NCBI GenBank assembly: GCA_964016885.1
Contig: OZ024741.1
Span: 291,028,001-291,092,000, forward strand
Length of the DNA: 64,000 bases
Direction: 5' to 3'
Source of the DNA: Eledone cirrhosa
Lineage: Eukaryota
Of this stretch, positions 13,069-56,813 are shown piece by piece (positions within the stretch are counted from its first letter, which is position 1; each line of letters opens with the position of its first letter). Made by a program: the position numbers and the translations under genes. The notes beneath the pieces are model-generated. The model was not told the DNA's origin, ran no database searches, and was given only the letters and a program-made list of their open reading frames with translations.

Positions 13069-13268
13069 ACAGGAATTGGTACAAACGAAAGAAAACAGCA
13101 ATCAACACATTGCGGAAGTCGAGAACAATTTTATTAACAATTTCACTTAAATCCACATTTCCATTGGTTTCAAGACGTGAACATCTATGCCATCAGATGC
13201 ACCTACTGACATAGATGTGTTCACGCCTCGAAACCAATGGTAATACTGAGTTAAGTCAACCTATTAAT
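13069..13268 (-). mobile_element. Old PLE-like terminal fragment with fold-back hairpin containing a half-hammerhead
   Basis: Inverted arms 13161-13189/13210-13240; arms carry GAAACCAATGG(TA); bounded by TA-rich simple repeats. Confidence 0.5.
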
Positions 13269-13274
13269 ATAATA

Positions 13275-13458
13275 TAATTGTTTCTACTTTGGGCACAAGG
13301 CCAGCTATTATCCCAGTGTATTACTGGTACTTTATTTTATCGACCCCGTAAGGATGAAAGGAAACGTTAACCTCGGCGGGATTTGAACAGTCCGTAAAGG
13401 GACGTAACTGTGCTGCAAAGCATGACGTCCGACCCTCTACCGATACTGCCAGTCCACC
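13275..13458 (-). mobile_element. SINE family A, full length
   Basis: Reverse complement of the 1087-1272 consensus; flanked by TAATATAATATAAT on both sides. Confidence 0.9.
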
Positions 13459-13572
13459 TTTTAATATAATATAATATAATATAATATATATATAACCTAA
13501 TCTCGGGAATTTTACCCGCCCTAGATAGATATATAATCTCTAGCTGGATTACCTTAAACGATATCTTGTTAT

Positions 13573-13677
13573 TCTCTCTCTCTCTCTCTCTCTCTCTCTC
13601 TCTCTCTCTCTCTCTCTCTCTCTCTCTCTCTCTATATATATATATATATATATATATATATATATATATATATATAT
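13573..13677. repeat. (CT)n(TA)n compound microsatellite
   Basis: Direct reading. Confidence 0.97.
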
Positions 13678-13758
13678 TTCGTTTCTGAATTTGTTTAGCA
13701 ACATGACCCTCCCAAAGTATAACAATATATATATATATATATATATATATATATATAT

Positions 13759-14112
13759 GGGCATATAAGACCATTGTTATAAGACCATTGTTGCACCAAT
13801 CAGTCTACTAACCCAAGGCAACTAAAACCGTACGCGAACCTGTAAACATGACTCCTGCCAAACAGACAAATACTCCCTCTCCAAATTTAGAAAATCAAGC
13901 ACCGACCACCCTTTCTCCCAAGCTTGGCATATTTAACGAGATCACAATAGTCACCAAATGTGGGAAGACATACGTTATCAAGCTGCAGCTTTCATATGAT
14001 GTAGTTTCTATATAATAAAGCCAAAGCTATTATTATCTGCAGCCACTACGACCACATTACGTAATCTGACGTAGTCCATCGAACTTAGACTCTGAAACTG
14101 CCCGATTACATG
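13759..14112 (+). mobile_element. Possible decayed PLE 3' end (GIY-YIG C-terminal relic plus degenerate HHR), TA-flanked
   Basis: (TA)n on both sides; with frameshifts reads TPANRQySLsKLE...FNEITIVTKC, resembling the PLE CxLCxxEK...NxRxExxxKC tail; GTAAT-CTGACGT-AGTC..GACT-CT-GAAAC...ATTAC at 14061-14109. Confidence 0.4.
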
Positions 14113-14517
14113 AATATATATATATATATATATATATATATATATATTCTTTTTCCTGTAACAGCTGAGAGAGCTCTAGGAACGGCGTATTGATATAACA
14201 CATTCTATCCGATGTCCTAAACATGCTGTCAATTGGCCGACACCCATAAATACACATATACACACACAAATACATACACACATACATAGGTGAAGCCAAC
14301 TCGTGTCCGACTACAACCACTTCTTAGACCAAAACAAAACAAAAAGCAGACATTGACAAAAACGTGTTACTGATTTTTGCTGACATCGATCTCGCCTTTG
14401 ATAGCTCATCAAACCAGGAAGTGAATTACATGTCATACTACACATTGTGTAGGTAAGTTTCTTTCTTGCTTAAGTTTGATGATTGGTGTAGCATGCTTTT
14501 TAGTGCGTTGTTACATA

Positions 14518-14913
14518 CGAGGGTAATCCCAAAAGTAAGGTCTCCAAAGCGATGGGGACACAGAGAAACTGTTCGTACTGCTATTGGCAACACTATTGTG
14601 ATTGGTGTTTCCTTCACTCCCAAACAAGCATGTGCGCACTTCGCTGGGATGCTCAATCTTGGCTTGACAGCAGTTGAGAATGGAGCTCCCGTTGAACCCT
14701 ACCCCCAAGTGCGAATTTCGCGCAGTTATTATATAGAGGGCAATCCCAAAAGTAAGGTCTCCTTCCGAGGAAAACATGCGTAACACTCTGGATGCTCTCT
14801 GCATTTTGGTTCCTGAGGTTTCCCAAAGCACCATCCACAGGACTTTAACGGAAAAGTTGCAATATCGGATGTTGCAATATCGGAAGGAGACCTTACTTTT
14901 GGGATTGCCCTCG
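14518..14913 (+). mobile_element. Internally deleted mariner element with three TIR copies
   Basis: TA-flanked 28-bp TIRs CGAGGG(T/C)AATCCCAAAAGTAAGGTCTCC at 14518-14545 and 14886-14913 (inverted), third copy at ~14735-14762; transposase pieces MELPLNPTPKCEFRAVI (ATG 14680) and TLDALCILVPEVSQSTIHRTLTEKLQYR. Confidence 0.88.
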
Positions 14914-15000
14914 TACATACCCCCCCCCCCCCCACATATATATATATACATACACACAAATATTTACCTACATAGATACATTGTTAGATAGATGTATGTA

Positions 15001-15292
15001 TGGTCCCGTAACTCCTGATAGAGCCGTAGTGACGCCGTATTGTCATACGGCGTTTCTAAGGGAATTTTAAGCCTGGTGGAGCCCATCCCTCTCCAGGCTA
15101 GAGTACAGCAAATTTCTTCCAGAGAAAGATAGTAATAGAGAGAAAGGGTTTGAGAAGAAGAGATACAGGAAGAATCGAACCCAGTACTAGACTGGTACTT
15201 TTTTATCGACCTCGAAAGGGATTTGAACTCAGAAAGCGAATACCATAAAGCATTATATCCGACGTTCTAACGACTCTGCCAATTCGCCGCCT
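15001..15292 (-). mobile_element. SINE family C (family-A-like head, distinct tail ending CAGGAGTTACGGGACCA)
   Basis: Homologous to 24090-24375 (+) and 52340-52650 (-). Confidence 0.75.
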
Positions 15293-54641: not shown

Positions 54642-54728
54642 GTATATATATATATATATATATATATATATATATATATATATATATATATATATATATA
54701 TATATATATATATATATATATATATATA
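54642..54728. repeat. Long (TA)n microsatellite
   Basis: Direct reading. Confidence 0.97.
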
Positions 54729-55059
54729 GCTTTTGTATTTGTATTTATGAGATTTTTTTAAAGTGTAAACGTGTGTTCAATCTGATATTCTAATAATTTG
54801 GTAGAGTCATGTTGCGAAAAAACACACACGCACCACCTGGGATCGCTTAAACTTATTATTATTCGTTAATTTTTCCGACCTTAGTTTAATAACCGAATTG
54901 TTGTTTAATCGTTTATTGTCAAAGATCTTTTGTAACATTCTGTGAACTCTTCGCTAACTACTTTTGTTACTTTGTTTCTCCTCTAATCTAACTTTCTTTT
55001 ATGAGCTGTGCACCTGGACTGCGCATGCGGTTGTGTTTCCCTCTGTGTGTGATATATAA

Positions 55060-55595
55060 CTAGACATGAGAAGTTGGTGTATGTATACAGCCGGAAGCCA
55101 CAACCCAGTTATCACAGTGGCAATATCCTGGGTGAAGCACATTCAACATGATGCTGGTTGTACCGAAAGGAAAATCAGTTACATAAAAGAAGGCATACTA
55201 TGTGGTAATCCCCTAACGTCATAATGATGCAGTTCGACGTAAGGAGCCGGATCTGGTGGGCTTGCAAAACAAGCAGCTGAATGATGGCAACGCTACGCCC
55301 CATTTCATGCAGCTGATCCAAAGCTTCTTGGCAAAGAAAGGTATTTCGCTAATTTACAAATCTCTTTACTTTCCAGACATGGCTTCTTATGTCAAGTGTG
55401 AAAGACGAGACATTTTCATGCCGACTGTGACAGCGGTGATATAATCTTTTTTTTTTTTTAGAAAAAGCATTCCAGACATGCTTCGAACAGTGGAGGGATC
55501 AAAGATACAAGGTGCTACTTCGCAGGAGATTAGCATTGAACTACAAGATATACGTAATATTTTTCCAGCCTAAGGTTGGATATTTCTCCGACAGA
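55060..55595 (+). pseudogene. Decayed mariner transposase catalytic domain plus right end
   Basis: SWC..PEATTQLSQWQYPG; YYVV..DAVRRKEPDL..LNDGNATPH (cf. LHHDNAPAH); FLAKKGI..LYFPDMAS (cf. YSPDLAP); KAFQTCFEQW..YFAGD*; TIR-like GGATATTTCTCCGACAGAACCCATGTA. Confidence 0.85.
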
Positions 55596-55628
55596 ACCCA
55601 TGTATATAAATAGTTTTTATTTCCCTAC

Positions 55629-55750
55629 GAGAGAGAGAGAGAGAGAGAGAGAGAGAGAGAGAGAGAGAGAGAGAGAGAGAGAGAGAGAGTGCAGAGAGAG
55701 AGAGAGTGAGTGAAGAGAGAGAGAGAGTAAAGGGAGAGATAGATAGATAG
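55629..55750. repeat. (GA)n microsatellite
   Basis: Direct reading. Confidence 0.95.
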
Positions 55751-55930
55751 CGAGAAAGAGACGAGCTGAGGAAAGAAAGCGAGTATTATATTTCTGACAG
55801 TTTTCATCACACATTCTTGTGTCAATAACACGTTCGTTGTTAACGATATATATATATATATATATATATATATATATATATAACGATATATATATATATA
55901 TATATATATATATATATATATATATATGTG

Positions 55931-56040
55931 TGTTGGATGAGTGATGCAGATGTACATACATACATACATTATATATATATATATATATATATATATATAT
56001 ATATAATGTATGTATGTACATCTGCATCACTCATCCAACA
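55931..56040. repeat. Inverted repeat of ~35-bp arms around a (TA)n centre
   Basis: TGTTGGATGAGTGATGCAGATGTACATAC... / ...GTATGTACATCTGCATCACTCATCCAACA. Confidence 0.92.
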
Positions 56041-56322
56041 TATATATATATATGTATATATATATGTATATATATATATATGTATATATATATATATATA
56101 TATATATATACACACACACACATATGGTGTGTGTGTGTATGTTTACATTGATGTGCACACGCGTATGTTTGTGTAAAGTAGGGAGGTGAAAGATATCTTA
56201 AATTTTATAGAAACTTTTACTGACGATGGGTTTCCTTGTTTGTTGATTGTATTTTATATCACGTCTCACATAACGAAAAATAGACAAAGTTAGATAGCGA
56301 AGGGGTGTGTCGCAGTACATGT

Positions 56323-56420
56323 GAGAGAGAGAGAGAGAGAGAGAGAGAGAGAGAGAGAGAGAGAGAGAGAGAGAGAGAGAGAGAGAGAGAGAGAGAGAGA
56401 GAGAGAGAGAGAGAGAGAGA
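56323..56420. repeat. (GA)n microsatellite
   Basis: Direct reading. Confidence 0.97.
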
Positions 56421-56610
56421 AGTGGTGCGACAAGGACAGATATATAGATATACAATGTGAGTGAGCCGGAGAGAGAGATAAGATGAGATGAGAATGAGAG
56501 AAAGAATGTAGCACAGACACACACTCATATGCATGTATGTGTATATATATATATATATATATATATATATATATATATATATATATATATATATATATAT
56601 ATATATATAT

Positions 56611-56813
56611 AACGAAGGAAATGTGGTAAGGAACCAGATGGACCATAACGCAACAAAGTACTCAATACTTAGGGTAGTAGAGTGGGTAATAGGAACAAGT
56701 AGGACCCCGACGGGTGAGCTCAAGCCGTTTCAGCGGCTAATTCTGGACTCAGAGTCCAGAATTAGCCGTCGAAACGGCTTGAGCTCAGCCGTCGGGGTCC
56801 TACTTGTTCCTAT
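56611..56813 (-). mobile_element. (TA)n-flanked ~200-bp hairpin element, copy 2 (half-hammerhead)
   Basis: Inverted repeat 56689-56813, apex CTGGACT-CAG-AGTCCAG; GAAA at 56771, GTC at 56791-93. Confidence 0.82.

Follow-up and report, generated by a model that had tools for sequence, protein, structure and literature searches.

Penelope-like elements (PLEs) insert as units in which an inverted, 5'-truncated copy accompanies the element and a tail is present on one side only (PMC8557442, PMC3846280, PMC2377424). Their pseudo-long terminal repeats (pLTRs) carry hammerhead ribozymes, including pairs on opposite strands (PMC4209133), and that of Penelope holds an internal promoter (PMC2377424). 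In vitro, a PLE protein cut and extended both target strands, started at two sites flanking the tail and used uncleaved RNA; the protein is predicted to dimerise (PMC11167929). How the inverted repeats and the one-sided tail form has been named an open problem (PMC8557442), and the later steps of integration are described as unvalidated (PMC11167929). Here we analyse a stretch of 64,000 nucleotides of Eledone cirrhosa (contig OZ024741.1, positions 291,028,001 to 291,092,000; hereafter the window) that contains seven long palindromes, most of them with hammerhead sequences near the mirror point. Each of the seven is a head-to-head insertion, and the five or six repeat families involved rely on PLE machinery. 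We consider it probable that they form by double priming, in which PLE reverse transcription starts from both target strands and proceeds to the capped start of an RNA made from an internal promoter, the two cDNAs then being joined end to end. Probably the ribozyme lies beside the mirror point without being the cause of the event.

The window is AT-rich and dense in (TA)n tracts (the host genome is 3.0 Gb), and no convincing protein gene was found in its 64 kb. A first-pass annotation, made from the sequence alone, had reported six palindromes of five sequence families; all six are present and the family count is correct. Five were recovered by a direct inverted-repeat scan (21283-21382, 49/50 positions paired; 27598-27916, 151/155; 40035-40145, 48/52; 47084-47224, 70/70; 56692-56810, 56/59) and the sixth, 13128-13273, by self-BLAST (76% identity, E 2e-21). 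A seventh palindrome, absent from that annotation, spans 40403-41454 with 292/292 positions paired and an intact hammerhead in its loop. As ten shuffles of the window gave top inverted-repeat scores of 9-11 and the real palindromes scored 36-292, chance does not account for them. Assembly artefact was ruled out, since the arms differ at several bases and the joints are unique; in addition, three DNA runs of a single sample yielded contigs with joints of the family called C below. The families were named A (the palindrome at 47154 and its parent copy, 41476-41876), B (40403-41454), C (40090 and 56751), D (27755), E (21332), F (13197) and G (outside the window, from random genome blocks). In the following list, outer and inner refer to two fixed 3' ends of a family and wall to its 5' limit.

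13128..13273, family F, old head-to-head palindrome whose apex (13199/13200) coincides with a short natural palindrome immediately 5' of a degenerate core
13190-13196 (minus) and 13203-13209 (plus), family F degenerate hammerhead cores on both arms
21190..21417, family E, tRNA-headed tandem-repeat insert, head-to-head, without a hammerhead; the left arm is the long (outer) arm
21331-21334, family E apex, a self-complementary 4-mer between T arm and acceptor stem
27431..27916, family D pLTR palindrome with (TA)n tracts on either side; left arm 27431-27752 (minus), with the outer end
27754 (the family wall) to the inner end, family D right arm, core retained at 27759-27765
39955..40148, family C pLTR palindrome; apex at the family wall, inside loop II; arms 39955-40086 (minus, tailed) and 40089-40145 (plus, tail-less)
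40403..41454, family B head-to-head insert of a 466-467 nt tandem retrozyme; junction 40768-40771
40680-40751 (minus) and 41177-41248 (plus), intact type I hammerheads of the family B insert
41476..41876 (minus), family A solo copy of a ~420 nt tandem retrozyme; intact hammerhead, core from 41783
46853..47437, family A palindrome; left arm inner-ended, right arm outer-ended, apex 47154 in stem II
47016-47151, 68-nt tandem duplication in the left arm of the family A palindrome
56612..56810, family C palindrome; tailed arm 56612-56749 (minus), tail-less arm 56753-56810 (plus)
56750-56752, three-base joint of that palindrome; each arm gains an extra G before the wall

The first-pass annotation had described the products as duplexes with two equivalent ends. 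In fact the arms are unequal wherever a window palindrome has (TA)n ends, one of them stopping at the outer site and the other 55-160 nt inside it. The annotation's assignment of the palindromes to PLE-related retro-insertion into (TA)n was borne out. Like the units of endonuclease-positive PLEs, they have a head-to-head copy, a tail at one end, a microsatellite target, a pLTR hammerhead and a tandem parent with reverse transcriptase (RT) and GIY-YIG domains. Unlike the known units they are mostly minimal (~200 nt), number thousands to tens of thousands and have junctions that pile up at one base, and their tails measure 55-160 nt rather than 30-40. The green anole element Poseidon gives a close biochemical parallel, as in vitro its two start sites flank the tail, both strands are cut and extended, the target is AT-rich and hammerhead cleavage is likewise not required; second-strand synthesis and the inverted structure are left open in the available part of that paper (PMC11167929).

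Family C provided most of the evidence. Locus L303 (positions 394-9954; L numbers denote loci elsewhere in the genome) is a near-complete tandem PLE with an inverted 5' part, in which two tandem units hold, in broken frames, RT motifs and a region at the C-terminal end that resembles an endonuclease. Four pLTR matches were found there, three tandem and one inverted, and as these family C sequences bound the units, family C is the pLTR of a full endonuclease-positive PLE (RT plus a GIY-YIG-type endonuclease). The order of domains within one open reading frame (ORF), RT then GIY-YIG, and the tandem pLTRs with an inverted 5' copy and a one-sided tail are those of this class. Direct Pfam scanning of the L303 frames was blank, as was a PDB search; homologues of the parent (~700 aa, ~40% identity) gave RVT_1 weakly in one case (E 9e-6) and GIY-YIG weakly in one (E 0.04), both below the curated cut-offs. 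Judged by its cysteine linker, the parent is putatively Neptune-like. From wall through tail the L303 pLTR is open in the frame of the N-terminal protein, yet it has no in-frame ATG. No RNA data set was listed as containing family C.

The family has two 3' ends abutting (TA)n, at about +60 (inner) and about +137 (outer), where +1 is the first base of the references. An apex-blind query with the tail found 29 other family C loci, and 27 of these were head-to-head by eye. An unbiased set was assembled from the apex-blind loci, 1.2 Mb of fetched blocks and incidental copies. Nineteen query-biased cases were dropped (they came from 30 loci whose ranking used a query with apex-side and mutated bases in it), and the duplicate filter was over-strict, excluding both window copies, L037, L060 and possibly other distinct copies. 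In this set 53 of 54 palindromes pair one tailed outer end (+122 to +137) with one tail-less inner end (+58 to +63 in 50/53). At the 5' side all 53 reach beyond GAAA and 46 reach +5 or further. The inner arm reaches further 5' in 17 palindromes and the outer arm in 11, with 25 tied. Cuts of more than 20 nt fall on the outer arm in 10 cases and on the inner arm in none (p 0.002). The two arms share subfamily variants at background discordance (at column 35, 12 shared and 1 discordant, n=48), and only one possible case of arms from different subfamilies, and so from two source RNAs, was seen among ~48 (R_C3 124736). Solo copies start at the same wall. In the contigs of the three DNA runs a tail position (+48 to +94) was joined to the wall in 9 of the 15 joints listed. 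Separately, L056, L060, L066, L262 and L301 contain tail-only copies that begin at +53 to +58 between (TA)n tracts; these may be outer cDNAs that halted at the inner site.

The exact pattern with both arms at +1 and 0-12 bases between them occurs at 2,205 sites and that with 13-30 bases between at 621, and the reversed control gave none in either case. Joints were read at 50 listed sites of the 2,205 and at 50 of the 621. The first 50 comprise 45 outer plus inner pairs, 4 scored inner-inner (several of them disrupted) and 1 outer-outer. The commonest joint (9/50) is loop-less and matches what two cDNAs that stop at -4 and pair through a terminal AT would leave. Joints overall show self-complementary overlaps of 2-7 nt, oligo-A tails and templated duplications, and among the longer joints an A run faces a T run in at least 10 of 50 and both arms extend to about -10 in 4 to 6. 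In the 41 joints of at least 2 nt an extra G precedes +1 on both arms in 6 and on one arm in 2 (Fisher p 1e-5); the extra base is G on 14 arms and A on 2. An extra G also precedes the -4 tier on 6 arms, in 5 events. The palindrome at 56751 is itself a both-arm case, and no G was present at the extra-G position among the family C read-through copies examined. In L1 an extra G is a trace of cap copying (PMC11702581).

Families D and G look like further pLTRs. Family D has 3' ends at 168 and 329, and 14 of its 17 exact sites share a one-base apex within a 7-nt quasi-palindrome of the parent; many copies read through the wall. In family G the wall lies just 5' of the core, and its 3,708 exact palindromes keep both cores intact, contrary to the earlier suggestion that palindrome formation usually destroys the CUGANGA core. 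In 6/6 of its read-through copies, drawn from two diverged groups, a TATA box precedes the wall A by 30-31 nt.

Family E is a tandem element with a tRNA-like head containing A and B boxes and with PLE-type ends. The first-pass annotation had taken GTACGTC at 21332 for a part of hammerhead stem III, but it is the 3' half of the acceptor stem. ARAGORN called a tRNA-Ser in the heads of 7 of 9 loci, and the Rfam tRNA model scored 41.2 bits (cut-off 29 bits). Five loci, searched over their central 600 nt, yielded no hammerhead core other than two hits in flanks. The junctions cluster at two places, the tRNA 5' end and the self-complementary 4-mer that follows the T arm; the loci are query-biased and only the incidental copies unbiased, but these show the same clusters. 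Our guess is that the T loop's modified A acts as a block and so produces them. tRNA-derived short interspersed elements (SINEs) have the same type of head, with A and B boxes. Family E differs from them in being tandem, in its two fixed 3' ends, (TA)n target and head-to-head inserts, which resemble those expected with a PLE rather than a long interspersed element as partner. Some details of the family stand apart from these results. In L256, L257, L259, L262 and L264 the head has a CGA or GGA anticodon by ARAGORN and the tandem element is ~260 nt, and close behind the head comes a run of five T, ordinarily a stop for polymerase III. An incidental palindrome at L107:1863-2048, with its apex at the tRNA 5' end, also gave a sub-threshold Rfam match to a microRNA precursor.

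Double priming would account for these features as follows. The PLE enzyme would prime reverse transcription on both cut target strands so that the RNA is copied twice, the two fixed 3' ends being the two start sites and the wall the capped 5' end of an RNA transcribed from an internal promoter. Downstream-promoter motifs sought by eye were unconvincing. Both cDNAs would usually come from the same RNA, with the outer displacing the inner and sometimes failing to do so, and host end joining would seal the apex. In family C the RNA would start inside loop II, so that short RNAs would never contain the core, and a hammerhead would lie near the apex because PLEs carry one at the start of the pLTR. 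This reading rests on the pair of fixed 3' ends in each family, the sharp 5' limit of the pLTR families C, D and G, the uneven arms, the joints with their overlaps, oligo-A tails, templated duplications and extra G, and the formation of the same palindromes by the tRNA-headed family E, which has no hammerhead. In L1 twin priming, the second target strand reportedly primes a second cDNA at an internal position that varies, and the arms are without overlap. As in that process, the inversion junction would be closed by end joining and the extra G would derive from the cap (PMC11702581). The PLE palindromes have a fixed inner site instead, and both of their cDNAs would usually reach the RNA end, which would yield a true palindrome.

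Several observations weigh against double priming to a capped start. No TATA box is present at -30 in family D, and the walls of C and D also resemble 3' splice acceptors (a pyrimidine tract plus AG). An unseen source copy may have supplied the extra G as a variant, and one subfamily accounts for 4 of the 6 both-arm cases. Two short family C palindromes (L035 and L039, missed by the script and so outside the 54) have apexes at ~+42 and ~+53. A one-sided deletion of the cruciform tip after insertion could mimic uneven arms, the (TA)n target hides target-site duplications, and shared variants cannot separate one RNA from two RNAs of one source. In family A, 10 of 36 junction ends fall inside the hammerhead where 5.4 are expected (one-sided p 0.03, uncorrected for query bias; 11 of the junctions came from a query just 3' of the ribozyme), and the insert at 47154 stops twice beside GAAA.

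An unlikely alternative, though the likeliest of them, is that a single cDNA folds back at the RNA end and primes the second arm, after which endonuclease or repair trims the product at the inner site and later deletions at the cruciform tip make the arms uneven. Such self-priming, of which the first-pass annotation knew no earlier statement, has been suggested for PLE inverted junctions (PMC3846280), as has endonuclease resolution for the tail (PMC8557442). Fold-back explains the identical variants on both arms and their paired lengths, and a short stem closed by a 6-nt loop would suit some joints, L023 among them. However, loop-less and one-base joints prevail, and 30 of the 53 family C inner arms reach +3 or further 5'. 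An arm made by fold-back must be a subset of the first cDNA, and a cDNA primed at the inner site offers no tail for copying; the cases in which the tail-less arm reaches further 5' therefore require either two primings or a later one-sided deletion. Large truncations confined to the outer arm are unexpected under symmetric later deletion, and such one-sided cuts would favour two primings on one RNA. Moreover, in the family B junction L076 neither arm is contained in the other, and the inner site also ends solo copies of family C.

The first-pass annotation had proposed that the hairpins of the ribozyme stall the reverse transcriptase or seed snap-back, with the apexes mapping onto hammerhead stems. 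We regard this as improbable, although several of the positions are right. At 47154 the apex lies in stem II beside GAAA, as judged from the parent with its core at 41783 on the minus strand. The stem II location of 40090 and 56751 was upheld by read-through copies elsewhere in the genome, which place both apexes in the long loop of stem II, 18 nt 5' of GAAA. At 27755 the apex is immediately 5' of the core, and the right arm retains it. In contrast, 13197 was misplaced in stem II, the apex at 13199/13200 being 3 nt 5' of the degenerate core and ~30 nt before GAAA; both arms of family F keep this core, and only one relative was found. The walls of C, D, F and G lie in or beside a hammerhead. 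In the family C read-through copies L004, L005, L018, L025 and L049 stems I, II and III are present, the core is ~45 nt before the wall and the apex falls in the loop of the long stem II. The core of the L303/L005 type is the U3-A8 variant, which has been described (PMC4209133), and that of the L049/L004 type has a C3-A8 mismatch; free folds of these copies did not give the active hammerhead fold. None of the family C joints examined follows stem II complementarity, and the wall lies behind the stem, which would already be melted there.

The tandem families A and B allow the ribozyme explanation to be judged where the hammerhead is intact. Their units, spaced ~423 nt (A) and 466-467 nt (B), each bear one type I hammerhead and no ORF; by these sequence features, A and B are non-LTR retrozymes. 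Descriptor searches and folds found core, GAAA and stems I-III in type I order in both. The Rfam HH9 match to family B (37.7 bits) is below the 52-bit cut-off and none was listed for family A; over the whole window Rfam gave hammerhead hits only sub-threshold, in family B, amid many chance microRNA hits. Metazoan non-LTR retrozymes have tandem monomers like these (420-470 nt, a type I hammerhead, no ORF), but head-to-head insertion with two fixed ends goes unmentioned in the available parts of those accounts (PMC7229834, bioRxiv 10.64898/2026.07.22.740005), and this feature points to PLE machinery. The fixed 3' ends at (TA)n are at 248 and 304 in family A and at 259-261 and 333 in family B. 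A genome search with the family A tail gave no matches, and one with a stretch of its body did. An octamer ~80-100 nt upstream of the core in both families (41862-41869 minus, 41096-41103; also L084 and L291) is a possible promoter element.

After removal of three doubtful TA-rich cases and the window's own, 18 of 22 family A junctions were kept, together with 10 of 11 from family B. Their ends are spread over the monomer, the two ends of one junction differing by a median of 73 nt (A) or 95 nt (B). The family A excess within the hammerhead, with 3 ends in stem II (1.3 expected, p 0.13), and the double stop at 47154 favour stalling, and uncleaved RNA was the main template in vitro (PMC11167929). 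Family B shows no excess (3/20 against 2.7 expected, none in stem II). Both ends lie inside the hammerhead in only 2 of 18 junctions (A) and 0 of 10 (B). Random blocks outside the window held 48 (TA)n-anchored palindromes, of which 13 belong to family C, 14 have a complete hammerhead in the arm and 21 gave no hit with the hammerhead descriptor (36 real and 7 shuffled hits per 300 kb). In the 14 with a complete hammerhead the apex is within 5 nt of the core in 3 and 45-246 nt upstream in 11. The scattered A and B junctions, these upstream apexes and the like behaviour of the hammerhead-less family E argue against ribozyme hairpins as a general cause. As first proposed, apex placement is strongly non-random in some families, as at the walls of C, D and G; in the tandem retrozymes the apexes scatter. 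Such scatter is expected of templates without a single fixed 5' end, perhaps with some pausing in A, and hammerhead pausing may add junctions in that family. A further observation from the same genome is a perfect head-to-head array at C3:150113562-150118232 (the L141-L160 block), with 2.3-kb arms made of a 310-nt tandem repeat bearing a hammerhead.

A little less probable still is that double priming holds but the wall reflects a 3' splice acceptor in the pLTR, as a limit set by processing or by protein binding. The C and D walls do have the pyrimidine tract and AG, and in Drosophila Penelope the intron runs up to the 5' end of helix I (PMC4209133). However, the arms retain the AG and extend to other A residues at -4 and about -10, the extra G occurs at two tiers, no common first exon is joined, and family G has its TATA spacing. 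Amplification from ready-made palindromic masters (of the type of miniature inverted-repeat transposable elements, MITEs, or of hairpin RNA) with later mutation of the apex would suit the very high copy number and recurrent joints (9/50 identical), but seems very remote since joints vary widely, with untemplated runs and duplications, the same joint occurs in different subfamilies, no arm-specific differences are fixed and solo copies begin at the same wall. The palindromes were also rejected as MITEs proper, which have equivalent ends and a conserved interior; here the ends are unequal and the apex variable.

The palindrome architecture is already known for PLEs, and the interest is in the joints, which open the integration step to testing. 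A literature search, which covered sources other than subscription papers and supplements, found no statement of double priming to a capped start for PLE palindromes, and the available part of an octopus repeat annotation (PMC13282606) mentions neither palindromes nor hammerheads. A broader proposal, to which we give slightly less than even credence, is that PLE integration is obligatorily two-ended. A dimer would copy a single capped RNA onto the two target strands, beginning at two fixed sites, and at no time require conventional second-strand priming. The palindrome would then be the default product of a short RNA, and the joints across the genome would record the RNA 5' end at base resolution. 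Some elements would start inside their own hammerhead, with the 5' copy never folding, and a tRNA-headed, SINE-like element would share the machinery. Thousands of minimal insertions with readable joints provide sharp predictions for the in vitro PLE system and argue against self-priming. In such genomes short hairpins risk being taken for MITEs or microRNA precursors, and the palindromes are a large pool of potential double-stranded RNA.

Other repeats were noted. A 100-kb block, C7:30000001-30100000 (L221-L230), is filled for the most part by an AT-rich satellite with internal inverted repeats and was filtered out of the analysis. Within the window, a 23-bp minisatellite occupies 42479-45328 (~123 copies, 89% matches). 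An inverted repeat around a (TA)n tract at 55843-56128 has short unique arms (87% paired), and a perfect 33-bp inverted repeat with a 111-nt spacer lies at 14736-14912, with a third partial copy at 14507-14545. A dispersed repeat of ~190 nt with a SINE-like look is present in more than 10 copies, some in tandem, including the following.

1087-1271, 13270-13459, 22715-22905 and 26703-26888, copies of the ~190-nt SINE-like repeat
37311-37495, 49225-49409, 49638-49823, 60282-60467 and others, further copies of the same repeat

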